This document shows, piece by piece, positions 1,261-34,407 of a stretch of 64,000 bases of DNA. This DNA comes from Tubulanus polymorphus (lineage: Eukaryota > Animalia > Nemertea), in contig NC_134028.1 in the NCBI RefSeq assembly GCF_964204645.1, positions 14,453,653 through 14,517,652 of the forward strand. Reading direction: 5' to 3'. Numbering within the stretch: position 1 is the first letter of the stretch; every line of letters begins with the position of its first letter. The notes under the pieces were generated by a model that saw only the letters and a list, made by a program, of their open reading frames with translations, was not told the DNA's origin and did no database searches. Position numbers and translations under genes: made by a program.

Positions 1261-4200
1261 TTAACACGTTAGGATTCTTTTCATTATCTCATTCTCTTTT
1301 GTTTCTTCTCTTTTAAATTTTAAATATTCATCTAAATTACAACCATAAGCAACTGTATAAATTCCATCATCTAAAATATATCTTTTATCATCAAATGGGT
1401 TTAGACTTATCTTTTCAATTTCTTCAATAAACATTTCATGATCTTCAGATCTTAAACATCGCATCTTATGTTTTCTAACTTCTTCATTGAATATACAATT
1501 GATGTAATCTTTGAAATGAATATTCTTTTCTACTACACTTTTGGTTATTCCTTTTAACTTTTTAGCTTCATGTTCTTTAGTTTTATATGAATACATTTTA
1601 GATCTAATACCGATGAATTCAATCATTTCTTCACTACCTAATTCATCTTTGAATTTACAAGGAACTTTTATTATCATTGCTAAACAATTCATGATCTTTA
1701 GGATAATTACTGAAATCAAAATGATGTTTTAATGTTTTTAAATCATCAGTTATGTTATCAGTTTTTATCTTTAATATGTAACCGTCGGTATCAAAATATA
1801 ATATTTCTATATGTTTTTCTCCAAAAAGTGGTTGTAATACATTATAATAGAATTCATACATTAGTAATTTTGATAATCATAAAACTGAAGCGCCAACATA
1901 GATTGGTTTATTAAATTTCATTGATGTTCTTCTCATCTTAACTGCAGCTAAATTTTCATCAAATATTCTGTTACCAATGAACTTAGGATATGATTGTAAA
2001 TACCTTATCCTTTTACCATTACTAACTAACTCAATATCATTTCTATTTCTAATATTTTCATCACAAGTCTTACCATAGAATGCATTATTCATTAACTTGA
2101 AGAAATCTTTCTCGAAATCAGTTTTAGCTTTAGTTCTCTGTTTGGTGTTAAAATCTATATATTTTTCTAACCACTTAGATTGGCTAAATGAAATATCTCT
2201 ATGTACTTTTTTTAGAACCATTCCCTGATTCAAATAAAACTTTAACATTCTATAATGTACTACATAATTATATTTATCTTCTTGAGTTACCATTAACTTT
2301 TCTGTATGAATATGATTTTCGGGTTTAATTCTTTTTTGGTAATTTGATAATTCTTCATGAGTTACAGTTTTATGTTCGGGACAGTAAGCTAGATTTCTAG
2401 ATTTAAATTTAATATGTTCAGGATATTCTAAATCTACAACAAAAAAATAACCAGTATCTGAATCATCTGCAATATCTAGAATTCTTTTCTTCCAATCAAA
2501 TTTATCATTATTTTCATTCTGTAAAACTTCAGTTAATTCAAATACTCCATAAGGATGTGGTTCCATCATTGCCCAACCATACAAATTATTTGCATCTATA
2601 TATAATAACTAATATCCAGGGTTATCATTTACATTGAAATATCTATCACCTAATACACCTGAAACTCCTCCTCTTATAGATTTTTCAAATGATAGTAATT
2701 GATCTATATTTGTTAACAAATCCATTTTTATATCTGTAAATTTTAAACCACAATCCCATGTTAATCCTGGACTTGAATAACAATGACAAGGATCAATTTG
2801 AAAATATTTTAGGTTTACATCTCTAAACCTTTCGAATATATCGGTTAATAATAATACATCTGATTTTAAATATAAATCTACTAATTGCCCATGATTTTCT
2901 ATTTTGAAATGATTCCAAATATTCAATGTTCTATTATAGACTTTATCTTTAACATATTCATTTTTTAATTCATCATAGAATTGTTCTTTCAATAATTCAG
3001 TTATATTGAAATCATTATGTGATTTATGAAATGAATATGGAATTGCTCCTTTATATCTCATTAATTGAAAATCATCATTATTTGGGTAGTGTTATTTTAA
3101 TGTTTTTAATTCATCATCAACTAATGATTTTGATAAGTTATCTAATGAACTATTTAAAAATCTATATGAATCTATAAATCTTAGGCAACCAAATTGGAAT
3201 GATATATAATTCTCAGATGTTTTAGCTAACATTCTAAATTTATAAGTTGGTATTTTATCTTATGATCTATTTGAATTTAATCTTTCTATTTCATTATTAA
3301 TTTCTTCTATTTTATGGCATAACTGTTTGATGAATAAATGTGCATCATACCCTGATAGATTATGAAATATAACTGGTACAAAATTAATTTTCTTAGCTTG
3401 TAAGTTACAATTCTCATGTGCAGCGCCTCTTAACTTTCCGTTCAAATGATCATGGTCTCTTACTTTTTTATCTCTAAAATTAAATATCTTTTCACAATAA
3501 TAACATTTATCTGCAAACTCAAATGCTTCTTTATCTTCTTCTGTCATTATAATTTCTATATTTGTATTCAATAATTTACTAAATCTTATTTCATATTCAA
3601 TTAATAAGTCACAAAAATGATTGATAACATTTTCATTTCTATAATGATAATATTCACTTTCAATTAGTTCTGGGTAATCAGATTTAATATATAACCCGAA
3701 AGCCGCAGCTGATTGATGAATCTTTTTAATAGTATTTGTTTTTGGTGGTTCTTCTGAAAAATCATTTTCATTAGAATTTAATTTCTTTCTTTTATAATAT
3801 ATTTCTTTTCTATCTTGATCAGTTAATTCTTTATTTAATGATTCAAAATCTCCATATATAACAAATGGAACTTTATTTTTGTAATCATATTTTTTGAATT
3901 CTAATATTTTATCCTTTTCATTTGGTAAAACTAATTTACAATAATCATGATTTTCACATAATTGTTTATGATTTAATAATGTACTTTCATTACTGAATTT
4001 ATGTAAACATTTTCTACATAGATATATCTTATTATGGTGATCACTTTCTGTTCTAAAGAATAAATCTATTTGTTTAATCCACATATAATGATTCTCATAA
4101 TATAATATATCTATAACATCGTTTGAATCATAATCTTTTGATAGGTATAAAGGTTCTAATGTATAATGTTTTATATTGTTACCTTTTGTATTTGGTAATT

Positions 4201-5305
4201 TGATTAAATCAAATAAATTCATCTTTATATTATTAACTCTTTCTATTTTTGGGATGTTTTTAATTATAACAGGATACTTATCTATCTTATAATTATTTTC
4301 AAATGGTTTATAATTTGTTAATCTATAAGTATGTTTATTATAATCTTCAAGTGGGTGTAAGCAACTTATTATAGCCCATAGAAAACATTTATCATCTTCA
4401 TTTTGTACATTTATAACAGCATTAGTTTTAAATGGTAGTTTAATATAACTCGATGCTTCAATATCTGGTTCTTTATAATATGATACTTTATTTTCATCAA
4501 TTGGTTTTGATTTAGTTAACTTATTATATTTTGTGCTATAAACATGTAAAGTCATAAATATTATTTCATCAAATATTAAACCAGATCCTTCAAAATATTT
4601 CTCTTCTATTTTAGTTTTTACTTCATTATAACATTTATCTAATTTATCATCTATATGTTGTTTATATATAATATGTTGTGAATGAGAATTTATATTATAT
4701 ATTGGTTTATCTTCAGATTTTATAAACTTTACTTTAACTGATATACTAATTTTAGGGTATTCAACATCAGTTATTATTTTTATAATATTTTTCATATTTT
4801 CTAAATGTTTTTTATTTTCTTCTAATGTTTTTCTTTTATGAAATTTAAACTCCATAGCTGCTGGACCAATATCACTTTTAAATGCTTCGGTTATCTCTAT
4901 ATCTTTTTTATTATCTTATGAATTAATATATTTACTTACATCTTCCATGTATTGTCTTTTATTGTTTAATTTATTTTTTATGCTTTTAATTGTCTTCTGT
5001 TTCTTAACATTATCTTTATCAAAATAATCTTCACCTAAAATAACATTATTCATATTTCTAATATGACTTTTAGATTTTAAATGTTCATTATAATATCTTT
5101 TATCACTGAATGATTGATTACATGTATCACATTTATATATTTCTTTTTCATTCATTAATTCATCTAATTTAGTTTCTAATATATCATCTTTATATTCTAG
5201 TTTCAATTTATTCTCTAAATGTGTTTTAGTTTTATTGTGTCTTGCTTTTTGGGATTTATCTATATTGATATTACATGTTGGGCAGTAGTACTTATTTGCT
5301 TCCAT
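1261..5305 (-). pseudogene. polB: Protein-primed family B DNA polymerase (pPolB) with N-terminal zinc fingers, vOTU-like and EndoVII-like domains; several stops/frameshifts
   Basis: Exo motifs YGDFES, FHNLSGYD, YLKSDV; KLMNNAFYGKT; YFDTDG (normally DTDS); INVQNEDDKCFLWAI; CYYC...VRDHDHLNGK.RGAAHENCN; split over ORFs 4916-5305, 3260-4855, 2609-3061, 1877-2584, 1655-1861, 1261-1719. Confidence 0.95.
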
Positions 5306-5535: not shown

Positions 5536-5801
5536 AGTAATAGGGGTAATAGGCTTTCAGGTTAAAGGTTGAACGGGCGGGTGAGTAAAAATGAAAAACA
5601 TGAAAATAATAACAATTTCTACTTGAATTAGGAGTGAAACTCATAAAAATGAAAAATAAATTCGAGCGTGTGAGAATTTATTTTTCATTTTTATGAGTTT
5701 CGCGAGTAATTCAAGTAGAAATTGTTATTATTTTCACGTTTTTCATTTTTACGAGCTCGACCGTTCGACCTTTGGCCTGAAAGCCTATTACCCCTATTAC
5801 T
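5536..5801. repeat. Terminal fold-back palindrome of E1 (266 bp, type A)
   Basis: AGTAATAGGGGTAATAGGCTTTCAGG at 5536 pairs with CCTGAAAGCCTATTACCCCTATTACT ending 5801; apex AATTCGAGCGTGTGAGAATT. Confidence 0.95.
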
Positions 5802-12471: not shown

Positions 12472-12740
12472 AGTAATAGGGAATATCTTGTTTCATACCA
12501 AAGGTCGAAAGGTCGAGCTCACAAAAAATGAAAAATATGAAAATAATAACAATTTCTATTTGAATTAGTAGCGAAACTCATATAAAATGAAAAATAATTC
12601 TCGCACACTCGAATTTATTTTTCATTTTATATGAGTTTCACTCCTAATTCAAATAGAAATTATTATTATTTTCATATTTTTCATTTTTTACTCACTAGCC
12701 CTTTCAACCTTTGATATGAAACAAGATATTCCCTATTACT
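12472..12740. repeat. Left terminal palindrome of E2 (269 bp, type A)
   Basis: AGTAATAGGGAATATCTTGTTTCATA ... TATGAAACAAGATATTCCCTATTACT. Confidence 0.95.
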
Positions 12741-12819
12741 CTTAAAATATTCATATTTATGAATAAAATATAAATGAATAACTTCTAAAATCAATTTTAA
12801 TAAAAAATTTAGTATTAAA

Positions 12820-13047
12820 ATGGAAGCAAATAAGTACTACTGTCCAACATGTAATATCAATATAGATAAATCCCAAAAAGCAAGACACAATAAAACTAAA
12901 ACACATTTAGAGAATAAATTGAAACTAGAATATTTACAGTTATATTCAGAACAGTTAACAAAGGCAAAGAAATTTATTGAATTATGGAATAATGATCCAA
13001 ATAATGAACAATACGTTGAGGAATTTGATATCAAGGATATGATTTAG
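12820..13047 (+). CDS. Small chimeric ORF: TIR-encoded C2H2 zinc finger fused to HNH-like C-terminal tail
   Basis: First 38 codons identical to PolB N-terminus (MEANKYYCPTC...H...H..EY); tail ELWNNDPNNEQYVEEFDIKD matches the end of HNH ORF 32251-32925. Confidence 0.6.
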   Translation: MEANKYYCPTCNINIDKSQKARHNKTKTHLENKLKLEYLQLYSEQLTKAKKFIELWNNDPNNEQYVEEFDIKDMI

Positions 13048-13296
13048 ATATTTCATGTCGGTTGTTTCTATTTACATAATTATATATTCATTATGTAAAT
13101 AAAATTATGATTAACGCATGCGCATTAAGCAAAAGCGCGCCTGAATGCGCGGTTTTACCCAGTGGTATGATTTAGATATAAAGGAATCGAAACGACTTAT
13201 CAAAAGCAGCGAGGAATGAAAAAGGATGACGTTGGTCGAAGAAATGGAAGAGGATTCTAAAATATTAACCAATTTAGTAAAAAATATGCATAATAA

Positions 13297-13950
13297 ATGG
13301 AATCAGAACAACCACAAACTATCAATATTACAAATAACACTGGTGTTATAAATATATACTACAAGAAGTGTTCTAAGTGTGAATTAGATAAATTAGCTTT
13401 AACAGAATTTAGTAAGCGTAAGATTAGCAAAGATGGTTTTCAATATTGCAGTAAAACTTGTTTTAAACTATATACCAAACAATATAGAGAAGATAATAGA
13501 GAAGCTTATAATGATTATATGACAGAATATATGAGAGAAAGATATCAAACAGATCTTAATTTTAGATTGAAACAATGTTTAAGGACTAGATTAACACAAT
13601 TATTCAACAAAGAAACGCATTCAGAAACACTATCTAATCTATTGGGTTGTTCAGATGAATTTTTCAAATCATGGATAATATATCAATTCGATGATAAAAT
13701 GAATATAGATAATTATGGTGAATACTTTCATATTGATCACGTGTTGCCGATTTCTAAATTTGACATGAGTGATGATTATAATAAGAAGCTAATATGGAGC
13801 TGGAAAAATTTAAGACCTTTAGAAAAGAAGGAAAACATAATTAAATCTAACAAACTAGATATGAAATTATATTTAGATCAACTGGATAAAGCAAAGACAT
13901 TTGTTGAATTATGGAATTCAACACATAATGAAAAATACGTTGAATATTAA
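13297..13950 (+). CDS. HNH endonuclease-like protein with N-terminal Cys motif
   Basis: KKCSKC...FS...DG.QY.CKTC N-terminus; HIDHVLP...W.NLRPL...N..KSNK HNH core. Confidence 0.8.
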   Translation: MESEQPQTINITNNTGVINIYYKKCSKCELDKLALTEFSKRKISKDGFQYCSKTCFKLYTKQYREDNREAYNDYMTEYMRERYQTDLNFRLKQCLRTRLTQLFNKETHSETLSNLLGCSDEFFKSWIIYQFDDKMNIDNYGEYFHIDHVLPISKFDMSDDYNKKLIWSWKNLRPLEKKENIIKSNKLDMKLYLDQLDKAKTFVELWNSTHNEKYVEY

Positions 13951-15107
13951 ACGCTTAGAAAACCGGTTACTCTCGATCTATGTCAAACCGCCTGTATGTA
14001 ATTATATTAGGTTGTTTACAAAAACATCTGTGCCGCATTTCATATTCAGTTGAATAGGGCGCACCTCATTTGAATATTGATCGAACGTGCTATTTCAGTT
14101 GAAAAGGATTAATCAATTATATTACAAAAGAAGGAACATCTGTTGCACCAGACGGTGTTTAGCTAGTGAATAACTGGCAGTTATAAACGCGCAGCACATA
14201 AGCATAGGAACGTATAGGATATTCTCTCTATAAACACAATTTTAGGAGTTCACAGTTATAAATGTAAGTACTGTTTTTGTTGTTATTAAGGCGTTGGGAA
14301 ACGTTAAACATGTAAAACTTATCCTGGTAAGATGCGCCACAAATGGTCATGTTTAAGTGTTGTAATTAATATTTTACAACTACAACTTCAAGTTAGTTAT
14401 ATTCTACGCTAGATATTTATCTTTTAGATAACAAAATGAAGACCATTGAATCAAGAAAGTGAAGATAGATGGATGTGGAATCAGAAATTATGGATATTTC
14501 AACTCATGAGACTGTAGCAGTTTAGCCATACTGTATAGGCTTTCAATGCATTACGTTTGTCGGAATGTCAATTGCGTCATTAAGCTGTTGTTAATGTCAC
14601 ACAGTGACAGATGTTGTATTGTACTTTATTGATTCCTGCATTCCACGCATAACTTAACGCTCCTCTCAGGAGCGGCTTGGAATGTGGAAATCGATAATGA
14701 TTGTAGAATAAAATATATATGTGTTTATGAAATAGTATTTCCACCAGTCGTTTCTTTGAATTTATTTTCAGTTTTAGGATTTATTATCAAGAATCCGAAA
14801 TGACTTATCTGGACAGTTATAATTACTGCTCCTATAGATAAACAATAGTAGTGAGATAATCTAAATCCTAATTTAAATAAAATATAATAAAAAAACAATA
14901 ACTTCATCTAGCTAGTGAATTCTATTATATTTTTAATACTTTCTTTTCAAAAAGAGAATACTTTATATTTTGAATAGATTCAAATAGAAATTCTTTAAGT
15001 TCAAATAGCTAGTATCAGTAGTCAATACTAGAATTCTTTAACTTTAACTATCTAGTATCATTTTATAATACTTATAATATTTTTCTTATTGAATTTCTCT
15101 AATATAA

Positions 15108-15715
15108 ATGTCAAAGAAATCTAATAAGAATAGTATTGATATTGAAAAAACATTAGATGATTTGGGTATAAATGATAATAAAGATACAGTTGTTTCTAAT
15201 TCTTTTCAAGTTAATAACAATATAGATTATGAATACTATTTATATTGTAAGCATCATATAGAACTATTGATTGCCGGTGGAAAAACTAAGGAGTTTTAAA
15301 ATAGAATCATTACTTTTCAAGAACTAGACTCTATGAAACCAGATAAAGTAATAAAATATTTTAAGATTTATGAAGAAGCTAGATTAGCTAGAATAAATGA
15401 TTCTATTTCAGATGGTATTGTCAAATGTTATTCTAAGTTATGTCCCAGTTAATACCAATTGATGACGAAAATAAATTATATAGTGATTTGAAAAATGACT
15501 ATTTAGTTATGACTGAATTACAAAAATGGGTTGGATATGCTTCATTTCAATTAGGATCGGTTATGACATTAATTTCTACTGGTGTCATAACATTTTCGAA
15601 TATCAAACCTATGGAATATAAATCAGGTAAGAACGAAACAGATGACGCTGTACTACAACCAAACGTCGAAACAGAAAATGAATCAGAACAAAAATTAACT
15701 AAGATAAATGAGTGA
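15108..15715 (+). pseudogene. Conserved hypothetical Polinton protein (~200 aa), frameshifted
   Basis: Homologous to 31368-31970 and 49965-50567. Confidence 0.7.
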
Positions 15716-16077
15716 TGGAGTTAAGAAAAAAGGCTAGATCTGAAAAACAAATTAAATGGGCAAGAGAATTAGGTAAAAGATCTTCAGAATTATAACAAGC
15801 TAAGAAAAAGAAATTAACTGTTATAAATGAATCACAGACTTTATCTGATATTGATTCAAATAACAATCCATCTAATTCTTCAAATGCTGGAAGTAATTAT
15901 AAATTATATATTACAATTGGATTAGTAACAGTTATTATATTATCTGGTGTAATATATAAATCAAAATTCAAATCTGATTATAACAATAATGATTCCAATG
16001 ACAATAAACCTATCATACCAAATAAGTCAAATCATAAAGTCATTGAAACTAAATCTAAATTATTATTAATGGATTAA
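15708..16077 (+). pseudogene. Basic N-terminus single-TM protein (MSDGVKKKARSEKQ...), frameshifted
   Basis: Homologous to intact 31004-31375 and 50560-50931. Confidence 0.7.
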
Positions 16078-16083
16078 AATAAG

Positions 16084-17175
16084 ATGAAAAAAGAACAATA
16101 TTTAAGAGATTTATATTATAACCCAGAAAGTGAAGTATCATATTCTAACGTTTCAGAATTATGGAATAAAATTAAATCTGATAATGAAAATGGTGATATA
16201 AAATATAGTGAATTAAAATCATGGTTACAAAATCAACCAACATATCAAATCCACAAGAAAATGGATAAAACTTATTTAACAAGAAAAGTTATGGTTTCAT
16301 ATATCGATCAACAATGGCAAGCAGATTTAATTGACATGAAGAACTTAGAAGAACACAACAAAGGATATTTCTGGATGCTGAATGTTATAGACATATTCAG
16401 TAGATACGCATGGTCAATTCCAATCAAAAATTAAACTGGTAAAGAAGTAACAAATGCTTTTAAATCAATATTTAAAGAAGCTATTCCAGATAAGATACAA
16501 TTTGATGAAGGTAAGGAATTCTATAACAAACATTTTAAAAAACTATTATCTGATAACGATGTAGAATATTTTTCAACACACTCAGATAAAAAAGCATCTA
16601 TTATAGAAAGATTTAATAAAACATTGAAATCTAGAATGTGGAAATATTTTACTGCTAATGAAACATACAAATATATCGATGTGTTAGATGATTTAGTGAA
16701 AGGTTATAATAATTCTAAACATAGTTCTATAAATATGAAACCAATACAAGCTAGAAAAGAAGATAATTCAGAAATAGTATGGAATAATTTATATGGAGCG
16801 TTTGTTACACATGATTTTGGAGAACCTAAATTTAAAATAGGACAACACGTAAGAATATCTAAATATAGAAAAACATTTTATAAAGGTTATACCCCTAATT
16901 TTACAGAAGAAATATTTAAAATTAAAAAGATAATATTAACTTAACCTTTTCTTTATAAACTAGAAGATCTAAAAGATGAAGAAATATTAGATTATTTCTA
17001 TGAACAAGAATTATCACTTGTGCCAAATCCAGAAGAAATAGAATATAAAATAGAAAAAGTATTGAAAACAAAAACTCTTAAAGGAAAAAAGTATTCTTTG
17101 GTGAAATATAAAGGATATGATGATAAATTTAATGAATGGATTTTATCTAGTAAAATTAAAAGAATAAATGAATAA
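16084..17175 (+). pseudogene. int: Retroviral-like (rve) integrase with C-terminal chromodomain; in-frame stops
   Basis: QQWQADLIDM, IQFDEGKEF, KASIIERFNKTLK (DDE); YKIEKVL...YSLVKYKGYDDKFNEWI chromodomain. Confidence 0.93.
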
Positions 17176-17774
17176 ATGAATAAAGATTTATTTATATTTG
17201 AACCGCATAATATGTTAGTTACTGGAGTAACCAATTGTGGTAAAACACATTTCATATTAGATTTGTTAGAAACTATTTATAAGAATCATATTGATAATAT
17301 AATATTATTCTGCCCTACTTATGAAATGAATAAAACATATGATAGGGATATAGTTAAGATGAAAAAGTTTATTATATTAAATCCTAAAACAATAAAAGAA
17401 AATTTAGATAATTGTATAAAAATAGCATTTACATGAATACATTATTCATTGTAGATGATTGCGCAAATTTACATGATTCAAAAGTGAGAGAAAGTGAGTT
17501 ATGTTATCTAGCTTTCTCTGGAAGACATTTCGGGATAACAACATGGGTTTTAAATCAAAAATATAATTCAATTGTTAAAGACTTTAGGGAGAATATAAGA
17601 TTTCTAGTTTTATTTTATAACAAAGATAAAAAATCTATGCAACAATCATTGGAAGAAAATCAAATTATACCTACTGAATTACATGATGAATATATGAATA
17701 AATTAAAGAATAATAAAGGTTCAAAATGATTACTGAGACTACAATTTCCCTATGAATATAAGTTTATAAAATAA
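17176..17774 (+). pseudogene. A32/FtsK-like packaging ATPase, internal deletion
   Basis: Walker A GVTNCGKT, Walker B IVDD, SGRHFGIT..LNQ. Confidence 0.9.
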
Positions 17775-17789
17775 CTATTTATATATCTA

Positions 17790-18350
17790 TCTATATAATA
17801 CGTATTAAATACGTATTAGATACGTATTAAATACATTAATACTTAAAACCCCATTTTTAAAATAATATATTATTCATATAATTTTCAACCAATTTATTTT
17901 TATTTTTTTCAACTAATATATGAATAAGTTTAAAGAATAATAAAGGTTCAAAATTATTACTGAGACTACAATTTCCCTATGAATATAAGTTTATAAAATA
18001 ACTATTTATATATCTATCTATCTAATACGTATTAAATACGTATTAAATACATTAATACTTAAAACCCCATTTTTAAAATAATATATTATTCATATAATTT
18101 TCAACCAATTTATTTTTATTTTTTTCAACTAATATATGAATAAGTTTGAAAATAATAAAGGTTATTTATTATTACTGAGGTTTCAATATAAATTTAAAAA
18201 AGAAATATAATTTAATGTATTTTCAAATAATATGTATTAAATACATATTAGATACGTATTAGATATGTATTAGATATGTATTAAATACGTATTAGATACC
18301 TTAATACTTAAAACCCCCTTTTTTATTTACTATTATTTTTTACAATTTTC
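17790..18350. terminator. Convergent intergenic zone with 11-bp TAATACGTATTA-type repeats; local ~225 bp duplication
   Basis: Lies between converging + and - gene blocks; equivalent zones at 20372-20740 and 29155-29282; terminator role inferred. Confidence 0.4.
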
Positions 18351-18358
18351 AACCTTTA

Positions 18359-19228
18359 TTACTTTTTGAGTGTTAGATAATCACTTTCTGAATCACTTTC
18401 ACTATCAGACCCTAACAATTTATTCAAATGCTCTACCGTATCTTCATAAATAATTGGTTTATTGATATACTTATTAGTCGTCTCAACTATATCTTTATTT
18501 TCTGATTTAAGTTTCATAGAATCTTTATTATCAATGCGCTTTCCTGTATTTTCATTATTATCTTTATTAGTGTTTGCTCCTAATATTTCATTTACAATGT
18601 TTGATTCTAATTTAATAGCATCGGTTAAATCTAATTCATCTTTATTAGGCGTTGCTAATAATAAATCTTTATATAATTCTTTACCATTTACTTTTTGATT
18701 TGAAACAAACTTTGTAACATATCTAAATGGGTGTTCTATAAATTCTCTTAAACCAACACGTTTTAAAACATTAGTAATATGTGAATTTGTATTCATATGA
18801 TTATTCCAATTTGATGGAGCGTTTGAAAATTCACCTTTACAATAATCACAATAATTTCTATTTTCACTAACATTTAATATTATTGCATTATTAGATGTAG
18901 AAGGTATTACATTATTAGATGTAGAAGGTATTGCATTATTAGATGTAGAAGGTATTACATTATTAGATCTAGAAGGTATTACATTATTAGATGTAGAAGG
19001 TATTACATTATTAGATATAGAAGGTATTACATTATTATCAATTACATTACTTAAATTATCAACAACTTCACTTTTATTATTATCGATTTCTATTAGTTTA
19101 GTTTTATAAATTTTGAAAAAAGGATCAAATATCAAAGCTATATTACAAGGTATTACATAATATAAACCATCATTATTTCCATGTGTATCGATGTATGGAA
19201 TATGTTTATATACTTTACCTCCTTCCAT
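18359..19228 (-). CDS. Hypothetical protein with (PSTSNNVI)n repeats and C2H2 zinc finger
   Basis: 24-bp tandem repeat ~18885-19050; CDYC...NWNNHMNTNSH. Confidence 0.75.
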   Translation of the reverse strand: MEGGKVYKHIPYIDTHGNNDGLYYVIPCNIALIFDPFFKIYKTKLIEIDNNKSEVVDNLSNVIDNNVIPSISNNVIPSTSNNVIPSRSNNVIPSTSNNAIPSTSNNVIPSTSNNAIILNVSENRNYCDYCKGEFSNAPSNWNNHMNTNSHITNVLKRVGLREFIEHPFRYVTKFVSNQKVNGKELYKDLLLATPNKDELDLTDAIKLESNIVNEILGANTNKDNNENTGKRIDNKDSMKLKSENKDIVETTNKYINKPIIYEDTVEHLNKLLGSDSESDSESDYLTLKK

Positions 19229-19260
19229 TTATTATATAAATTTTTATTAAAGTTAAAATT

Positions 19261-19535
19261 TTAATACATAACACTATTCAATTGAGAATTTACAATATTT
19301 AATTGCGCGTCAGATATAATATAAATGTGCATTTTGAAATTTTTGATTCCTTTATTCTTTGTCATGAATAATTGTATTCCATCTTTAGTGTTTTGTAATT
19401 TTTCTTCCAGAGCCATGTAATGAATTATCCTCTGTTGTTCTAAAATCTAACCATAATGCATATTTATTACCGGTATAATAATCAATTTGATCAATATTAC
19501 AATTTTCAGATGATTTTACTTTTTCATTCATAAAA
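19261..19535 (-). pseudogene. Major capsid protein 3' fragment (duplicated segment)
   Basis: Near-identical to 35039-35312. Confidence 0.8.
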
Positions 19536-19759
19536 ATAATATTTATGACTTTACATGTTTATAGCACAAAATATAAGTCTATGGTTAGATTTTAGAACAA
19601 CAGAGGATAATTCATTACATGGCTCTGGAATAGAATACAAAATAGAAAAAGTATTGAAAACAAAAACTCTTAAAGGAAAAAAGTATTCTTTGGTGAAATA
19701 TAAAGGATATGATGATAAATTTAATGAATGGATTTTATCTAGTAAAATTAAAAGAATAA

Positions 19760-20371
19760 ATGAATAAAGATTTATTTATATTTGAACCGCATAATATGTT
19801 AATAACTGGAGTAACCAATTGTGGTAAAACACATTTCATATTAGATTTGTTAGAAACTATTTATAAGAATCATTTTGATAATATAATATTATTCTGTCCT
19901 ACTTATGAAATGAATAAAACATATAATAGAGATATGGTTAAGATGAAAAAGTTTATTATATTAAATCCTAAAACAGTAAAAGAAAATTTAGATAATTGTA
20001 TAAAAATAGCAATTGATACTTATAAAGGATCAAATACATTATGCATTGTAGATGATTGCGCAAATTTACATGATTCAAAAGTTAGAGAAAGTGAGTTATG
20101 TTATCTAGCTTTCTCTGGGAGACATTTTGGGATAACAACATGGGTTTTAAATCAAAAATATAATTCAATTGTTAAAGACTTTAGGGAGAATATAAGATTT
20201 CTAGTTTTATTTTATAATAAAGATAGAAAATCTATGCAACAATCATTGGAAGAAAATCAAATTATACCTACTGAATTACATGATGAATATATGAATAAAT
20301 TAAAGAATAATAAAGGTTCAAAATTATTACTGAGATTACAATTTCCATATGAATATAAATTTATAAAATAA
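19760..20371 (+). CDS. A32/FtsK-like packaging ATPase, intact second copy
   Basis: GVTNCGKT, CIVDD, SGRH; preceded by chromodomain-coding end of integrase (19631-19767). Confidence 0.9.
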   Translation: MNKDLFIFEPHNMLITGVTNCGKTHFILDLLETIYKNHFDNIILFCPTYEMNKTYNRDMVKMKKFIILNPKTVKENLDNCIKIAIDTYKGSNTLCIVDDCANLHDSKVRESELCYLAFSGRHFGITTWVLNQKYNSIVKDFRENIRFLVLFYNKDRKSMQQSLEENQIIPTELHDEYMNKLKNNKGSKLLLRLQFPYEYKFIK

Positions 20372-20743
20372 CTATTTGTATACCTATGTATTAGATATCC
20401 TATTAGATACCCTAATACCTAATACCCCACTAGATACCCTAATACCTGATACCCTAATACCTGATACCCTATTAGATACCTTAAATACTTAAAACCCCCT
20501 TTTTTAAAATAAATATTATTTATACAATTTTCAACCAATTTATTTTCATTTTTTCAACTAATATATGAATAAGTTTGAAAATAATAAAGGTTATTTATTA
20601 TTACTGAGGTTTCAATATAAATTTAAAAAGAAATATAATTTAAGGTATTTTCAAATAATATGTATTAGATATGTATTAGATACCTTAAATACTTAAAACC
20701 CCCTTTTTTATTTACTATTATTTTATACAATTTTCAACCTGTA

Positions 20744-21458
20744 TTACTTCTTGAGTGTTAGATAATTACTTTCTGAATCACTTTCATCATCACTCTCCAA
20801 TTCACTATCATACCCCATCAATTTTTTCAAATTCTCTACCGAATTTTCTTCTTTAAATTCTTTATTATTTTTGTACTTATTCTTCACCCTTTTTACTGTA
20901 TCTTCATAAATAATTGGTTTATTGATATACTTATTAGTCATCTCAACTATATCTTTATTTTCTGATTTAAGTTTCATAGAATCTTTATTATCAATGCGCT
21001 TTCCTGTATTTTCATTATTATCTTTATTAGTGTTTGCTCCTAATATTTCATTTACAGTGTTTGATCCTAATATTTCATTAGCATCAGTTAAATCTAATTC
21101 ATCTTTATTGGGTGTTGCTAATAAAAAATCTTCATATAATTCTTTACCATTTACTTTTTTATTTGAAACAAATTTGGTAACATATCTAAATGGGTGTTCT
21201 ATAAATTCTCTTAAACCAACACGTTCTATTACATTAGTAATATGTGAATTTGTATTCATATGTTTATTCCAATTTGATGGAGCGTTTGAAAATTCACCTT
21301 TACAATAATCACAATAATTTCTATTTTCACTTACATTTAATATTATTGCATTATTATATGTAGAAGGTATTACATTATTTGATGTAGAGGGTATTACATT
21401 ATTAGATGTAGTAGGTATTACATTATTAGATGTAGTAGGTATTACATTATTAGATGTA
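20744..21458 (-). pseudogene. 3' part of repeat/zinc-finger gene split by E3 insertion
   Basis: Homologous to 18359-19228; 5' part resumes at 34813-35006. Confidence 0.85.
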
Positions 21459-21862
21459 AGTAATAGGGGTAATGGGCTTTCAGGCCAAAGGTCGAACGGT
21501 CGAGCTCATTAAAAAACAAAACATTAAAAGTAATTAAAAACTATAATATATTTTCAAAACCGTGTGCATTTTATATTAAAACTAATTATTTATTCTAAGA
21601 TATCAATAATCTAAAAAGCATATTGTATTAAATCAATTGGTCGCTCCACTTCGCTACCGCTCCGCTCCGCGACCAATTGATTTATTTACAATACACAAAT
21701 TCATATAATCAAATATATTTTAATAATAATAATTATTCTATTATTCAACTGAAATACACACGGTTATGAAAATATATTATAGTTTTAAATTACTTTTAAT
21801 ATTTGTTATTAATGAACTCGACCATTCAACCTTTAACTTGAAAGCCCATTACCCCTATTACT
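21459..21862. repeat. Terminal palindrome of E3 (404 bp, type B)
   Basis: AGTAATAGGGGTAATGGGCTTTCA ... TGAAAGCCCATTACCCCTATTACT; apical stem AATCAATTGGTCGC/GCGACCAATTGATT. Confidence 0.95.
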
Positions 21863-21942
21863 CTTAAAATATTCATATAAATGAATAACATTTAAATCAT
21901 TGAACTTCTAAAATCAATTTTAATAAAAAATTTAGTATTAAA

Positions 21943-24900
21943 ATGGAAGCAAATAAGTACTACTGTCCAACATGTAATATCAATATAGATAAATCCCAAA
22001 AAGCAAGACACAATAAAACTAAAACACATTCAGAGAATAAATTGAAAATAGAATATAAAGATGATATATTAGAAACTAAATTAGAAGAATTAAAGAATGA
22101 AAAAGAAACATACACATGTGATACATGTAATCAATCATTCAGTGATAAAAGATATTATAAAGAACATTAAAAATCTAAAAGTCATATAAGAAATAAGAAT
22201 AATGATATTTTAGGTGAAGATTATTTTGATGAAGATAATGATAAGAAACCGAAGACAATTAAAAGCATAAAAAATAAATTAAACAATAAAAGACCATACA
22301 TGGAAGATGTAAGAAATTATATTAATTCATTAGATAATAAAAAAGATATAGAGATAACCGAAGCATTTAAAAGTGATATTGGCCCAGCAGCTATCGAGTT
22401 TAAATTTCATAAAGGAAAAACATTAGAAGAAAATAAAAAACATTTGGGAAAATATGAAAGAAATAATAAAAATAATAACTGATGTTGAATATCCTAAAAT
22501 TAGTATATCAGTTAAAGTCAAATTCATAAAATCTGAAGATAAACCAATATATAATATAAATTCTCATTCACAACATATTATATCTAAACAACATATAGAT
22601 GATAGATTAGATAAATGTTATAATGAAGTAAAAACTAAAATAGAAGAGAAATATTTTGAAGGATCTGGTTTAATATTTGATGAAATAATATTTATGACTT
22701 TACATGTTTATAACACAAAATATAATAAGTTAACTAAATCAAAACCAATAGATGAAAATAATGTATCATATTATAAAGAACCAGATATTGAAGCATCGAG
22801 TTATATTAAACTACCATTTAAAACTAATGCTGTAATAAATGTACAAAATGAAGATGATAAATGTTTTCTATGGGCTATAATAAGTTGTTTACACCCAGTT
22901 GAAGATTATAATAAACATACTTATAGATTAACAAATTATAAACTATTTGAAAATAATTATAAGATAGATAAGTATCCTGTTATAATTAAAGACATCCCAA
23001 AAATAGAAAGAGATAATAATTTAAGAATAAATGTATTTGATTTAATCAAATTACCAAATACAAAAGGTAACAACATAAAACATTATACATTAGAACCTTT
23101 ATATCTATCAAAAGATTATGATTCAAATGGTGTTATAGATATATTATATTATGAGAATCATTATATGTGGATTAAACAAATAGATTTATTTTTTAAATCA
23201 GAAAATGATCACCATAAAATATATCTTTGTAGAAAATGTTTACATAGATTCAGTAATGAAAGTACATTATTAAATCATAAACAATTATGTGAAAATCATG
23301 AGTTATTGTAAATTAGTTTTACCAAATGAAAAAGATAAAATATTAGAATTCAAAAAATATGATTACAAAAATAAAGTACCATTTGTAATATATGGAGATT
23401 TTGAATCATTAAATAAAGAATTAACTGATCAAGATAAAAAAGAAATATATTATAAAAGAAAGAAATTAAATTCTAATGAAAATGATTTTTCTGAAGAACC
23501 ACCAAAAACAAATACTATTAAAAAGATTCATCAATCAGCTGCAGCTTTCGGGTTATACATTAAATCTGATTACCCAGAACTAATTGAAAGTGAATATTAT
23601 AATTATAGAAATGAAAATGTTATCAATCATTTTTGTGACTTATTAATTGAATATGAAATAAGATTTAGTAAATTATTGAATACATATATAGAAATTATAA
23701 TGACAGAAAAAGATAAAGAAGAATTTGTGTTTGCAGGTAAATGTTATTATTGTGAAAAGATATTTAATTATAAAGATAAAAAAGTAAGAGATCATGACCA
23801 TTTGAATGGTAAATTTAGAGGTGCAGCGCATGAGGCTTGCAATTTACAAGCCAAAAAAGTAAATTTTGTCCCCATTATATTTCACAATTTATCGGGGTAT
23901 GATGCACATTTATTCATCAAACAGTTATGCCATAAAATAGAAGAAATCAATAATGAAATAGAAAGATTAAATTCAAATAGATCAAAAGATAAAATACCAA
24001 CTTATAAATTTAGAATGTTAGCTAAAACATCTGAGAATTATATATCATTCCAATTTGGTTGCCTAAGATTTATAGATTCATATAGATTTTTAAATAGTTC
24101 ATTAGATAACTTATCAAAATCATTAGTTGATGATGAATTAAAGATATTCAAAGAAAATGACCCAAATAATGATGATTTTCAATTAATGAGATATAAAGGA
24201 GCAATTCCATATTCTTTCTATAAAAATCATAATGATTTTAACATAACTGAATTATTAAAAGAACAATTCTATGATGAATTAAAAAATGAATATGTTAAAG
24301 ATGAAGTATATAATAGAACATTGAATATTTGGAATCATTTCAAAATAGAAAATCATGGGCAATTAGTAGATTTATATTTAAAATCAGATGTATTATTATT
24401 AACCGATAAGAAAGAATTCTAGATATTGCAGATGATTCAGATACTGGTTACTTCTTTGTTGTAGACTTAGAATATCCTGAACATATTAAATTTAAATCTA
24501 GAAATCTAGCTTACTGTCCCGAACATAAAACTGTAACTCATGAAGAATTATCAAGTTATCAAAAAAGAATTAAACCCGAAAATCATATTCATACAGAAAA
24601 GTTAATGGTAACTCAAGAAGATAAATATAATTATGTAGTACATTATAGAATGTTAAAGTTTTATCTAAATCAAGGAATGGTTCTAAAAAAAGTACATAGA
24701 TATATTTCATTTAGTCAATCTAAGTGGTTAGAAAAATATATAGATTTTAACACCAAACAGAGAACTAAAGCTAAAACTGATTTCGAGAAAGATTTCTTCA
24801 AGTTAATGAATAATGCATTCTATGGTAAGACTTGTGAAAATATTAGAAATAGAAATGATATTGAGTTAGTTAGTAATGGTAAAAGGATAAGGCATTAACA

Positions 24901-25643
24901 ATCATATCCTAAGTTCATTGGTAACAGAATATTTGATGAAAATTTAGCCGCAGTTAAAATGAGAAGAACTTCTATGAAATTTAATAAACCAATCTATGTT
25001 GGCGCTTCAGTTTTAGAATTATCAAAATTACTAATGTATGAATTCTATTATAATGTATTACAACCACTTTTTGGAGAAAAACATATAGAAATATTATATT
25101 TTGATACCGATTCTTACATATTAAAGATAAAAACTGATAACATAACAGATGATTTAAAAACATTAAAACATCATTTTGATTTTAGTAATTATCCTAAAAA
25201 TCATGAATTGTTTAGCAATGATAATATAAAAGTTCCCGGTAAATTCAAAGATGAATTAGGTGGTGAAGAAATGATTGAATTCATTGGTATTAGATCTAAA
25301 ATGTATTCATATAAAACTAAAGCTCATGAAGCTAAAAAGTTAAAAGGAATAACCAAAAGTGTAGTAGAAAAGAATATTCATTTCAAAGATTATATCAATT
25401 GTATATTCAATGAAGAAGTTAGAAAACATAAGATGAGATGTTTAAGATCTGAAGATCATGAAATGTTTATTGAAGAAATTGAAAAGATAAGTCTAAACCC
25501 ATTTGATGATAAAAGATATATTTTAGATGATGGAATTTGGAATTCATACGGTTGCTTATGGTTGTAATTTAGATGAATACTTAAAATTTAAAAGAGAAGA
25601 AAAAAAAGAGAACGAGATAATGAAAAGAATTCTAACGTGTTAA
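21943..25643 (+). pseudogene. polB: pPolB, fragmented; ~350 bp deletion at ~24409 removes DANNLY motif
   Basis: Same motifs as 1261-5305; YFDTDS present in 24959-25567. Confidence 0.95.
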
Positions 25644-25672
25644 TCAAATTTTAATAAAAATATGTTATTAAA

Positions 25673-25970
25673 ATGGAGAGTAAACAAGCACACAGTGAGA
25701 ACAACAAATTATTTCTAGATAGAATTAAAGATATAACAAATGTAAAATCTGTAGATTATAAATTCAAAAAGTTAACAGAATTAACAATCCATAAGAAATA
25801 TCTAATTACAAATATTGATACAGTTACTAATAACTATGGAGATAAATTAGTTATACACTTAGAATATGAAGGATTAAAAGGAAATACATATAAATTCAGA
25901 ACATATTTACCGGATAGATTTCATAGATTATCAAGTGAAGATTTAGAAGAATTATGTTCTGGAGATTTCT
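25673..25970 (+). pseudogene. Small OB-like protein gene truncated by LINE insertion
   Basis: Matches 41451-41804 up to LCSGDF, then diverges. Confidence 0.8.
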
Positions 25971-26316
25971 TCGATATCCAACTTCAAAATTCAGCTTCAG
26001 CGTTATCTTCGTTCCACTTATTAATTATCTGTGTAATCTTTTATAACGTGCCACATTACTTTATCTGCAATTGTCTATGTATATTATGTATATTTGGTTT
26101 GTTTGGTAAACTAGGAATGAATGTGAATTGGTGTATATGTCTGTGTGTATGTGAGAGTGTATGGACGAGGGATTAGGACTAGATTAAGCCAACTTTGGCT
26201 TCTCCTAATTCCTCGCATAATTTATTGGTACATTGTTTTCCATATATTGTGTATTCATTTGTAAACTCTGTAACAATCTTTTATGCAAATAAATAAATCA
26301 TCAATCATCATAAATC
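25971..26316 (+). mobile_element. 5'-truncated LINE (CR1/L2-like) 3' end
   Basis: Encodes SISNFKIQLQRYLRSTY* (resembles ORF2 C-terminus), followed by 3' UTR, AATAAA and (ATCA)n-like tail. Confidence 0.65.
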
Positions 26317-27641
26317 AATTTAGCATTTTCATGGGATTTATTATCATCATTTAGTTTAATTATATCATGTTGAATAACACCGTGTGGGTGCCATACGGCA
26401 CCATTATCAGTTCTTATATCACCGTGTGGGTGCCGTACGGCACTATCTTCTGATGTATTGTAATCTTTTATTTTAGAATCATTATTTAATTTAATATTAT
26501 TAGTTTAAGTTTCTGTTGATTGAATATGTTTTTTAATTTTTTCACCTTCCATTAATTTTGGAGCAGTAATAATCTTTTTATTTATATCATTTAACCCAAA
26601 TGAATTATTTATTGTTGCAGTTTTAATTAGATTATTATAACCAATTATGTTTCCCATCTTTAATACTAAATCATTAGAAATAATTAATAGATTAGGGCCT
26701 AAACAATAATTTAATCTAATATGTGATTTATCTAAATAATTTTGATATCTTATAATGTTTTCTGGAATCGATCTATTTTTATCATTATGAATGGAATCTT
26801 CAAATAATACTTTGAATTGTTTCTGCGCATCGAATGAAGTGTTATCATTTCCAATTATTGGTGATCTTGTTTCAACTTGCGCACCTAGAATACATATCAA
26901 ATAAGTTCTAATAGATTGATTTATTCTTTGTATTCCAGCTTTAGTAAAACCTTCACTATTTTCTAAAATGAAATTAACCCAACCATTATTGTTTTGTTGT
27001 TGTATATTATTATAATATTTTGGTAATTCATTCCAATTTAGTGTTCTAATATCTGAATTTGTCATTATTTTTCCAAATTCTTTAGTATATAATATTCCTA
27101 ATCCACCCATTGTTCCAATTTTTGCTCTAAAATCTTTATTTGAATTAATATTAAATTCATTACATATTTTATAAAACTTAGAAAAATTAATATTATTATT
27201 CAATTCTTTAAAATATTTTGAACCTGGTAAAGGACATTCTAATTCATCTAATATTAATTTTATTTGAAAATAAGTATGAAATCTAAAAAGTGATAACATC
27301 AATGGTAAACTTGGTTTGTTTAAATGATCATTCCAACTAATTCCACATCCTGTTGTTGCACAATAAACAGCAAAATTCAATTGGTTCTGCCAATACTTCA
27401 TATTAGATTTTAATAACCATTGTTTTGCCTCATTTAAATTTTTGAAATTAATTGTATACACATGAAATATATTTTCCATCTTTGCATTAAAATTATTAGT
27501 TTCAGTAACATAAATTTCTAAATTAGTTAATGAATCTAAAACTTTATTTCTTTATGTAATATCTTTATTAAAATCTATTGCTGGAATATTATATTTAATT
27601 GATTTATTATATTGGAAAGCTTTTGGAAAACTATCTGCCAT
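26317..27641 (-). pseudogene. Conserved Polinton hypothetical protein (WQNQLNFAVYCATTGCG), C-terminal TM lost
   Basis: ORF 26505-27479; homologous to 37790-39169. Confidence 0.75.
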
Positions 27642-27657
27642 TTATATAATTAAAAAA

Positions 27658-28092
27658 TTAATAATTTATTAATTCTTTTAATAATTTATCTTGTTCTTCA
27701 ACTGTTATATGTCCATTTAAACTTATGATATAATCTAGTGTATTCTTTAATTTATTAATTTCTTTTATATTAGTTTTAATTTTTTCTTTATTACTTTTTA
27801 TATTTAATTTTGAACTTATACCGGTTAAAACACTTGAACTTAATCCTAACACACCAATTGATATAGCTAAAGGTGTTAATGGACTGAATATTGCTAAAAA
27901 TGTTATTACAGAACTAATTGTAACCGAACCACTTATAATCAAATAATATATAATTTTAGATTTTAGATATTTTTTCTTTTTTATCTTTAAGTCACTTTCA
28001 AATTCTAATATTTGTTTTTCTAAATATATTTTTAATTTAGTTTTATTTATATCATGAGGAATAATATCAATATTATCAACTTTATCTTCCAT
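27658..28092 (-). CDS. Coiled-coil two-TM small protein
   Basis: Hydrophobic hairpin IIYYLIISG...GVLGLSSSVLTGI; homolog at 39186-39620. Confidence 0.7.
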   Translation of the reverse strand: MEDKVDNIDIIPHDINKTKLKIYLEKQILEFESDLKIKKKKYLKSKIIYYLIISGSVTISSVITFLAIFSPLTPLAISIGVLGLSSSVLTGISSKLNIKSNKEKIKTNIKEINKLKNTLDYIISLNGHITVEEQDKLLKELINY

Positions 28093-28111
28093 TTATTTAG
28101 CAAAAAAATTA

Positions 28112-28534
28112 CTAATTAGTAAACTTATAAGCAACAAATATAACAACAACAGTTCCGCCTAAAATCCAAATTATTTCATATTTCTGTTGTTCTTTACTTG
28201 GGGTATAATAATCTGATAATTTAGGTTTGTATAGATGTAATTTTTCTTTATTGGTTACCGCGTTATATAAACTCATTGCATCATCAACTGTTTGAAAATC
28301 TCTATGTGCAATCTTCTGATCATATAATTCTTTGTTAATATAATCCATATAGTTTTGCCTCTTTTCTCTATATTCTTCTGCTGCTTTATTATATTTCTCT
28401 AATGCTAAGTTATGTCTTCTTTGTTCTCCTAATGAACTATTTTTATCAATATGCTTAAATAAATATCCACCTCCAGTAAATGCTAAAGCGTTAACAATTG
28501 CCGATCCTATAATAGTTATAATTGCAGAAGCCAT
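28112..28534 (-). CDS. Small protein with amphipathic N-terminus, coiled coil and C-terminal TM
   Basis: MASAIITIIGSAIVNALAFTGG...RRHNLALE; homolog at 39641-40063. Confidence 0.7.
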   Translation of the reverse strand: MASAIITIIGSAIVNALAFTGGGYLFKHIDKNSSLGEQRRHNLALEKYNKAAEEYREKRQNYMDYINKELYDQKIAHRDFQTVDDAMSLYNAVTNKEKLHLYKPKLSDYYTPSKEQQKYEIIWILGGTVVVIFVAYKFTN

Positions 28535-28558
28535 TTATTTAGCAAAAAAATTATGCAT

Positions 28559-28780
28559 TTATATGGGAGGAATATATTTTTGTTTTTCCAAATAATCAAT
28601 AGTTAAATTAGATAAAGTAACTGCTAACGTTAATTTTAAAGTATCATTTATATCAAATCTATCATCATTAACACTTCCCATTTTGAATACTTTTTTTAAT
28701 ACCATTGAATAACCAACAGTTCCAACTGATAGTAATGCGCCATTATATAATCCAGTTATTATCCACTTATTATCACTCAT
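28559..28780 (-). CDS. 73 aa hydrophobic protein
   Basis: Conserved with 40088-40309. Confidence 0.65.
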   Translation of the reverse strand: MSDNKWIITGLYNGALLSVGTVGYSMVLKKVFKMGSVNDDRFDINDTLKLTLAVTLSNLTIDYLEKQKYIPPI

Positions 28781-29137
28781 TTATTTATCAAAAAAATTAC
28801 TATCATCAAAATATTTAGTTATCTTATTTATGATTATTTCAACATTTATTTCATTACTAGTTTCATTTGTATATATTTCAATTATTATTTTTTTAATATC
28901 ATCGATGATAAAATCTTCATCTAATTCATAAAATCTTAAAGATTCTCTAATTAAATTAGTAATCTTTTCTACATTTAAAGTTTCTTTATCTATTGTTTTT
29001 TCAAACTCAAATGTTGTTTCATTAGAAAATGTGATATTTTTGATATGTGTAATTACATCATTAACGTTAAATTTCATTTCTTTCTCAAGTTTAAAATCAA
29101 ATCCAAAACATATACTCGGTCCAACAGTTATATTCAT
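28781..29137 (-). CDS. 118 aa acidic hypothetical protein
   Basis: Conserved with 40317-40667. Confidence 0.65.
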   Translation of the reverse strand: MNITVGPSICFGFDFKLEKEMKFNVNDVITHIKNITFSNETTFEFEKTIDKETLNVEKITNLIRESLRFYELDEDFIIDDIKKIIIEIYTNETSNEINVEIIINKITKYFDDSNFFDK

Positions 29138-29282
29138 TTATATAGTGAAAAAAATAAAAATAAATTGGTTGAAAATTATATGAATAATATTTATTTTAAA
29201 AAAAGGAGGTTTTAAGTATTAAATACATTAATACGTATTTAATACGTATTTAATACGTATTAGATAGATAGATATATAAATT

Positions 29283-29894
29283 TTATTTTATAAATTTATA
29301 TTCATAGGGAAATTGTAGTCTCAGTAATAATTTTGAACCTTTATTATTCTTTATTTTATTCATGTATTCATCATGTAATTCAGTAGGTATAATTTGATTT
29401 TCTTCCAATGATTGTTGCATAGATTTTTTATCTTTGTTATAAAATAAAACTAGAAATCTAATGTTTTCTCTAAAGTCTTTAACAATTGAATTATATTTTT
29501 GATTTAAAACCCAAGTTGTTATCCCGAAATGTCTCCCAGAGAAAGCTAAATAACATAACTCACTTTCTCTCACTTTTGAATCATGTAAATTTGCGCAATC
29601 ATCTATAATAAATAATGTATTTGATCCTTTATAAGTATCAATTGCTATTTTTATACAATTATCTAAATTTTCTTTCACTGTTTTAGGATCTAATATAATA
29701 AACTTTTTCATCTTAACTATATCTCTATTATATGTTTTATTCATTTCATAAGTAGGACAGAATAATATTATATTATCAAAATGATTCTTATAAATAGTTT
29801 CTAACAAGTCTAATATGAAATGTGTTTTACCACAATTGGTTACTCCAGTAACTAAAATATTATGCGGTTCAAATATAAATAAATCTTTATTCAT
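29283..29894 (-). CDS. A32/FtsK-like packaging ATPase, intact
   Basis: GVTNCGKT, FIIDD, SGRH. Confidence 0.9.
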   Translation of the reverse strand: MNKDLFIFEPHNILVTGVTNCGKTHFILDLLETIYKNHFDNIILFCPTYEMNKTYNRDIVKMKKFIILDPKTVKENLDNCIKIAIDTYKGSNTLFIIDDCANLHDSKVRESELCYLAFSGRHFGITTWVLNQKYNSIVKDFRENIRFLVLFYNKDKKSMQQSLEENQIIPTELHDEYMNKIKNNKGSKLLLRLQFPYEYKFIK

Positions 29895-30997: not shown

Positions 30998-31003
30998 CTT
31001 CTT

Positions 31004-31970: not shown

Positions 31971-32250
31971 TTATATTAGAGAAATTTAATAAGAAAAATA
32001 TTATAAGTATTATGAAATGATACTAGCTAGTTAAAGCTAGAGAATTCTAGTATTAGTTATTGTTTTTTAGTATTTTTTATTTGTGATATCAAGTATTCTT
32101 TTTTGAAAAGAAAATATTAAAAATTAAAATAGATATAATAGATAGTTGAAGGTATGTAATTTTTATTATATTTTATTTAAATTAGGATTTAGATTATCTC
32201 ACTACTTTTGTTTATCTATTAGGAGCAGTGATTATAACTGTCCAGATAAG

Positions 32251-32925: not shown

Positions 32926-33044
32926 TTATTATACGTATTTTTTTACTAAATTTGTTAATAATTTTAGAATCCTTCTCCATTTCTTCGACCAACGTCATCC
33001 TTTTTCATTCCTCGCCGCTTTTGATAAGTTGTTTCGATTCCTTG

Positions 33045-34327: not shown

Positions 34328-34407
34328 TTTAATACTAAATTTTTTATTAAAATTGATTTTAGAAGTTCAATGATTTAAATGTTATTCATTTATATGAATA
34401 TTTTAAG

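Follow-up and report, generated by a model that had tools for sequence, protein, structure and literature searches.

Polinton termini in Tubulanus polymorphus open with long fold-back palindromes that carry a co-varying 10-nt spacer

The usual end of a Polinton is a perfect AGT repeat, and the mode of Polinton replication has never been demonstrated. Polintons (Mavericks) of group 2, the Alpha-adintovirus type, encode a pPolB with predicted TP and vOTU domains (PMC8502044; 10.1101/2024.03.18.585575). The adintovirus paper mentions ITRs, and the available part of its text does not use the word 'hairpin' (PMC8502044).

Folded termini are described from several other systems. In Halocafeteria seosinensis virophages and PLV subtype 4, which are rve-integrated polisuviruses, palindromes lie within the TIR beside the TSD, measure 52 nt in the example given, accompany mainly non-pPolB replicases and have been explained by a hairpin-priming model; the accessible portion of that report mentions neither a spacer that varies nor co-variation of the arms, nor any strand polarity (10.64898/2026.07.28.741278). 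For Streptomyces telomeres, which are TP-capped ends of linear DNA, it has been shown with Tap that the 3' strand folds onto an internal complement and that truncated ends are refilled on this fold-back, in a bacterial setting with an internal origin, Tap as primase (with Tpg), repair of up to 4 nt and a conserved telomere sequence (PMC5449611). Parvovirus telomeres (AAV ITR; MVM left end) are imperfect terminal palindromes in which fixed mismatches distinguish the arms and, in MVM, can make them functionally unequal, and they depend on nicking by an HUH Rep and hairpin transfer (PMC1185569). For adenovirus and PRD1, the displaced strand is thought to regain a duplex origin intramolecularly by pairing its two genome ends, a panhandle that is also invoked for homology restoration; the fate of the displaced strand is debated, and the end-to-end panhandle is the usual model although direct evidence is wanting (PMC11886824).

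Here, we describe a window, the whole stretch of DNA that was analysed, of 64,000 nt from Tubulanus polymorphus (GCF_964204645.1, NC_134028.1, 14,453,653–14,517,652, forward strand), which holds five copies or remnants (E1–E5) of one AT-rich element family. These are Polintons: besides pPolB they share with the described elements, as far as the consulted parts of the sources go, an rve integrase, an A32 ATPase, long TIRs starting with AGT and a 6-bp TSD, and possibly a capsid gene. They differ in that their TIRs open with a fold-back of 266–405 nt and their ends read AGTAAT instead of a perfect AGT repeat. Unlike the protist palindromes, they are associated with pPolB as the only replicase detected in the window. 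As in Streptomyces, predicted folds and mismatch polarity indicate a 3' strand whose terminal bases pair with an internal complement; the window elements, however, combine a single long stem with a B-family polymerase and a spacer that varies, and refilling is here proposed only. In contrast to parvoviruses, no HUH Rep was matched (Pfam) in the 21 ORFs scanned, several ORFs being unassigned, the predicted TP domain is retained, and none of the six termini, all from integrated copies, is a flipped isomer, although the MVM left end likewise has a single form. Whereas the adenovirus and PRD1 panhandle joins two genome ends, the complementary partner of each 3' end lies only 130–200 nt away at the same terminus.

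In the literature searched, with subscription papers, Repbase and preprint supplements outside its scope, we came across no pPolB Polinton whose ends are described as long hairpins with strand polarity and a spacer that co-varies; the H. seosinensis report is the only related description there, and its supplements may list its palindromes (10.64898/2026.07.28.741278). Self-matching hairpin ends are a likely new means by which protein-primed genomes preserve their termini. A local, strand-polarised fold-back with a natural marker of copying between arms makes the questions of Polinton replication and of the panhandle testable.

Terminal palindromes and the 10-nt spacer

Both elements that have two ends, E2 and the E3 nested in it, carry long TIRs with AG...CT ends and a 6-bp TSD (Table 1), whereas E1 has only its right end (at 5801), E4 only its left end (at 46936) and E5 is a remnant. 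Each element end opens with an imperfect palindrome of 266–269 nt in E1 and E2 (short type) or 400–405 nt in E3 and E4 (long type). The initial annotation had reported AATATCTTGT at 12482–12491, flanked by AGTAATAGGG and TTCA, and direct reading confirms this as well as all five 10-mers that it quoted for E1–E5. The pattern AGTAATAGGG-N10-TTCA is found 12 times in the window, in both arms of six hairpins, against 0.02 expected, and none of 100 shuffles reaches 12. Spacer length is 10 nt in all 13 window arms and in the 4 arms of the relatives L111, L113 and L114. Over positions 1–24 the arms are identical at five of the six termini, the exception being position 19 of E2 right, so that the annotated complementarity of the arms at positions 11–20 holds in the window with one change; it fails in L111, which is mismatched at positions 11 and 15. 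E5 is unable to test co-variation because only its inner arm remains, without AGTAA.

Table 1. Features of the window discussed in the text (window coordinates)
Feature	Position	Strand	Remarks
Element E2 (Polinton)	12472..45867		TIR ~462 nt, 98%; 6-bp TSD ATTGCT at 12466-12471 and 45868-45873
Element E3, nested in E2	21459..34812		TIR ~599 nt, 99%; 6-bp TSD GATGTA
E5 remnant	54283..54388	+	inner arm, spacer 54288-54297; much shorter central hairpin; outer end lost
E2 left palindrome, short type	12472..12740		269 nt; outer arm begins at element end
E2 left outer-arm spacer (positions 11-20)	12482..12491	+	reads AATATCTTGT
E2 left inner-arm spacer	12721..12730	-	exact copy
E2 right palindrome	45600..45867		268 nt; inner spacer 45610-45619 (one private substitution), outer 45848-45857
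E1 right palindrome, short type	5536..5801		266 nt; spacers 5546-5555, 5782-5791
E3 left palindrome, long type	21459..21862		404 nt; spacers 21469-21478, 21843-21852
E3 right palindrome	34408..34812		405 nt; spacers 34418-34427, 34793-34802
E4 left palindrome, long type	46936..47335		400 nt; spacers 46946-46955, 47316-47325
E1 pPolB, uninterrupted stretch	3260..4915	-	predicted TP fold, likely vOTU domain, exonuclease with inserted endonuclease VII
E2 pPolB	41837..45508	-	broken into several frames; E3 copy 21955-25640 (+), broken as well
Small ORF, possible OB-fold single-strand binding protein	41451..41804	-	always beside pPolB; weak lead
E3 rve integrase with chromodomain	29887..30780	-	copies: E2 16078-16944 (+), E4 51179-51784 (+)
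A32-type packaging ATPase	29283..29894	-	copies 19760-20371 (+), 51871-52422 (+)
Stand-alone HNH/endonuclease VII-like ORF	13297..13950	+	adjoins TIR; copies 32251-32925 (-), 49012-49686 (+)
Likely double jelly-roll major capsid gene	35039..36284	-	two frames; lead only

Divergence peaks locally at the spacer and is doubled in both arms. E3 and E4 differ at 6/10 spacer sites in each arm, compared with 12/542 in the flanks (10/359 in the hairpin interior and 2/183 in the adjoining body; Fisher p 9e-8), a pattern that, judged from sequence, is likely to reflect a block change together with copying from arm to arm. Between E1 and E2, the spacer differs at 7/10 sites versus 27/226 elsewhere (p 6e-5). 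A swap of the hairpin centre could give the mosaic of E1, but not the E3/E4 pattern, where the body is near-identical too.

It had also been annotated that only the last ~24 nt are homogenised. For E3 and E4 this stands, as no column outside positions 11–20 co-varies within the first 130 and all other changes affect a single arm; for E1 and E2 it does not, with further co-variation at positions 25, 26, 39, 65 and 87 and two indels (~51 and ~111), and with perfect runs of 27–44 bp inside the stems. Arm coupling is tightest at the end and looser further in. The deeper co-variation of E1 and E2 extends across persisting mismatches and therefore cannot come from refilling of the end, nor does template switching account for it; it requires a second process. 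Arm-specific differences 5–15 nt from the spacer are present in every copy, and an inner-arm change at position 25 of E3 is retained at both of its ends. The perfect stem terminates exactly at the host junction, and at none of the six junctions does the 3' end continue into body sequence. In E1, positions 11–18 exactly repeat positions 2–9 (shuffle p 0.0006, best of 9 rows).

Raw reads of an independent study (run X5; 1,934 million letters) were aligned to the inner arm and body of E2; their variants mix inner and outer arms, are unphased, and their shares were summed by hand. Among the sites listed, four that are diagnostic of the E3 type show it in 766–867 of 2,005–2,059 reads (38–43%) and a fifth in 1,300 of 2,021; among the rows listed, 632 further clipped reads match this type, which is also the commonest. 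As the E1 and E3 spacers are moreover one base apart, the spacer is not element-specific, contrary to the initial annotation, and a few haplotypes are common to many copies. Body read depth in the same run is ~1,000–1,150, which would correspond to hundreds of element copies if the genome measures 0.5–1 Gb. The spacer also types subfamilies of a high-copy element.

Mismatch polarity and relatives

Mismatches were read on the strand that has its 3' end at the terminus, leaving out T.T pairs. In DNA, mismatches with G are the most stable ones, and on this strand G.T, G.A and G.G account for 12/13 in E1, 11/12 in E2 left, 7/9 in E3 and 6/7 in E4; the bias per element is borderline, being reached by 1, 4, 4 and 6 of 60 randomisations. 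Counting each site once, as entered by hand, mismatches common to at least two elements contain G at 12 of 13 sites (p 0.002) and private ones at 6 of 10, and therefore the bias lies in retention and not in mutation. In predicted folds the 3'-ended strand is better by 8.6–12.5 kcal/mol at all six termini. On sequence grounds, the polarity of the shared mismatches points to a single-strand fold-back that is probably selected. A twin GGTCGA motif is present in the outer arm and absent from the inner arm; the outer type of arm faces host DNA in 6/6 cases and the inner type faces the body in 7/7. L111 likewise has no flipped end.

Among 80 metagenome loci retained, three close relatives have sufficient upstream DNA. 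L111 has a complete hairpin of ~257 nt, L113 an inner arm on a contig that begins within the stem, and L114 an outer arm that lacks an inner partner. All three retain the layout AGTAA...(10)-spacer(10)-TT[CG]A, and the hairpin design persists where polymerases are 64–78% identical to P0001, or 72% identical to that of the window. L111 shows no strand bias (30/60 randomisations) and equal fold energies of its strands; this copy may have decayed, or its assembly may combine different copies. In the relatives, the spacers are closer to the window types than shuffles are (summed best match 20 vs 13.8, p 0.003), so the spacer is not wholly free. Of 99 loci from distant relatives, the 69 of at least 4 kb were compared with themselves: a long terminal fold-back is absent from the five with a recognisable end (L137, L192, L211, L214 and L219), and L190 has an inverted structure at its contig end. 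By this comparison the terminal hairpin looks like a clade feature.

Motif searches added little beyond these loci. Viral contigs gave 109 matches to the framed motif; the downstream terminus motif accompanied none of them, and we regard these as chance. Stricter patterns gave 0 matches in metagenome contigs and 0 in viral contigs, a looser pattern in 221 loci matched L111 and L114 only, and locus searches with a single protein, pPolB or the integrase, gave no match. As a separate observation, one distant Polinton has an internal 184-nt hairpin, bounded by ACTACT/AGTAGT in the opposite order to a terminus, a short way upstream of its polymerase (L218:4657-4840).

Possible origins of the arm match

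What keeps the two arms alike? The best explanation, to which we assign an even chance, is that the 10-mer is a fixed-length variable spacer whose arms are matched by templated copying in cis when the 3'-ended strand folds back. In the series of steps that we infer, pPolB would replicate by terminal-protein priming and strand displacement, and the 3' end of the displaced strand would snap back on the inner arm, giving a blunt duplex end of 24–26 perfect base pairs as a local replacement for the panhandle that in adenovirus and PRD1 is proposed to span the whole genome. Any 3' end that had been trimmed would then be refilled on the inner arm, which we slightly favour over a template switch of the nascent strand that copies the outer arm into the inner one. 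Positions 1–10 and 21–50 would be boxes bound by protein and separated by one turn of the helix. With the G.T and G.A mismatches that it retains, the inner arm could pair with the end and yet lack the twin GGTCGA, and hence would serve neither as a further origin nor as an integrase site. Haplotypes of the spacer would change as blocks, probably when co-resident lineages exchange them or when slip-back leads to recopying, and would then reach all four arms.

Templated copying is supported because six changes are doubled in both arms within flanks that diverge by 1–3%, which is hard to obtain by stepwise compensation; the test set for it comprises the four elements with both arms, plus L111. 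The polarity of the mismatches favours refilling over template switching, and the repeat in E1 favours an origin of its spacer at the outer arm by slip-back, not by inner-to-outer copying. L114, with an outer arm and no inner arm, counts against fold-back copying. Of the end-patching proposed in the initial annotation, templated copying (six doubled changes) and the fold-back of the 3' strand (mismatch polarity) are supported, whereas the strict 24-nt tract has to be given up in view of E1 and E2. Precedents exist for several steps in the accessible parts of the literature: fold-back templating repairs a TP-capped 3' end in Streptomyces (PMC5449611), stems are fixed by single template-switch events (PMC8794818), and slip-back over 1–3 nt is a normal move of protein-primed polymerases (PMC5175343). 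The fast turnover of positions 11–20 is left unexplained by copying alone, by refill or template switch alike; old haplotypes passed between lineages, or selection acting on a code, may account for it. The idea that endonuclease VII proofreads the stem while sparing G-containing mismatches was set aside; the available portion of PMC5587813 gives no such preferences.

Selection on a code is the core of an alternative that we consider unlikely, in which the spacer is a lineage-specific recognition code for the zinc fingers or TP of the polymerase, or for the integrase, under diversifying or balancing selection, and the arms match because they need to pair. The block-like divergence within near-identical flanks would suit such a code, as would the likeness of the relatives' spacers to the window types, which implies a constrained sequence or old haplotypes. 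E1 and E3, with near-identical spacers, differ at 4/92 TP residues compared with 8/130 and 8/94 to E2 (n=3), and pPolB and DDE integrases have been argued, in the accessible part of one report, to work on the same ends (10.64898/2026.10.13.758929). However, only three sequences each are compared for polymerase and integrase, E3 and E4 differ at 6/10 spacer sites and at 2/183 in the part of the TIR with the first zinc-finger codons, integrase substitutions (5 between E2 and E3 beyond shared ones; few in all pairs) follow no pattern by spacer type, and one haplotype dominates the reads among the rows listed. Folded single strands are the substrates of attC and IS200 recombination, and here too the hairpin could be an excision or integration substrate of which the structure is read, its arms being matched by selection and occasional patch conversion and not by end refill. 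The strand-polarised mismatches, the stop of the perfect stem exactly at the host junction and the co-variation scattered along the short-type stem all fit, but six doubled changes at a background divergence of 1–3% require a copying event, and we judge this quite unlikely.

If the 3' fold-back instead primed its own extension, as in a parvovirus-like rolling hairpin, the fused or stand-alone endonuclease VII could resolve the product, with mismatches giving asymmetric resolution as at the MVM left end. A 3'-OH paired over 24–26 bp in predicted folds is a ready primer, two endonuclease VII-like domains are encoded, MVM holds one orientation by means of an asymmetric bubble (PMC1185569, as far as its consulted text goes), and hairpin priming is proposed for the protist palindromes (10.64898/2026.07.28.741278). 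The absence of flipped ends at the six termini and in L111, the retained predicted TP domain with its Ser loop and the lack of an HUH Rep among the 21 ORFs scanned argue against it, as does the preferential association of the protist palindromes with non-pPolB replicases in the accessible part of that report, and self-priming seems rather unlikely to us. That the arms were homogenised by assembly, or that the fold-back is an accidental duplication, is very improbable: the paired arms are indeed read from a single assembly, and an accidental origin is among those offered for the protist palindromes (10.64898/2026.07.28.741278, available part), but arm-specific differences close to the spacer recur in every copy, the reads of the independent study show the loop turn and variant letters, the design persists in the relatives, and retained mismatches are polarised while private ones are not. 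Templated fold-back copying could, finally, belong to an origin that corrects itself by folding back and carries a barcode in one Polinton clade: the 10-nt spacer would be rewritten in all four arms at once, and the proteins of replication or integration would read it. This extension is rather improbable in our estimate; if true, co-resident lineages could tell which ends are theirs and which belong to a competitor or a defective copy.

Gene content and structural variants

All three window copies of pPolB are broken. Among 7988 candidates scored, 1092 are homologues, the best three being 69–72% identical and several bearing PF03175, and Pfam places an endonuclease VII domain within the polymerase. 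The model of its N-terminal 551 residues (pLDDT 85.8) has five strands and two helices, and a Gly-Ser111-Gly loop that follows the second helix and precedes the last strand occupies the position at which linking residues of polinton terminal proteins were placed in the consulted part of a previous study (10.1101/2024.03.18.585575). The best fold hits of this region are Y-family polymerases (LF/PAD-like, 112–129 columns, E 0.002 or weaker, matched range inferred). The Ser-Gly is invariant in 10/10 close rows and falls outside the invariant columns of the 77-row alignment, whereas Cys177 and His276 of the likely vOTU domain are invariant in 77/77. Judging by this model, protein priming is likely to be retained.

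The rve integrase (PF00665, E 1.8e-9, plus a chromodomain) and the A32 ATPase (PF04665, E 1.6e-11) were recognised by Pfam, and the E3 copy of the HNH/endonuclease VII-like ORF matches phrog_1035 (E 5e-19). Look-alikes of the capsid candidate in the Atlas (0.96–0.98) include DJR capsid clusters, with recognition below threshold and no match in Pfam and PHROG. An adenain maturation protease was found in none of the 21 ORFs scanned, which come from decayed copies and leave out short ORFs. The small ORF beside pPolB is a weak lead to an OB fold (Atlas 0.85, best Z 6.0), and both it and the stand-alone endonuclease VII-like gene accompany the polymerase in relatives also. It lies between hairpin and polymerase in L111:571-933 and L113:338-721 and downstream of the polymerase in the window (881–1231), and the HNH gene has been relocated in the opposite way.

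Several structural variants were noted besides. The TIRs are enlarged at the non-polymerase end, where they take in the first ~34 codons of the polymerase with its first zinc finger (12741–12933, 34214–34407 and 47336–47529); the E5 end is without this segment and runs directly into the HNH ORF. At the right end of E1, an extra ~145 nt separate the inner arm from the start of the polymerase (5355–5500), and 474 reads depart from the E2 sequence at the matching place, making this a common variant. In the E5 hairpin (54330–54384) the two arms have lost length symmetrically, and some reads turn at other places (joints 12639/12644 and 12675), which suggests hairpin length variants or library artefacts. 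E2 contains a ~2.6 kb tandem duplication of the ATPase and a repeat-rich ORF (17037–21458 and 34813–35312), and E3 is inserted in a 24-nt tandem array in the second copy of it. In some copies, reads show a 113–128-nt tandem repeat at 13038–13165, with doubled depth around a GC-rich motif, and a host-region ORF at 58904–59467 has paired CxxC motifs.
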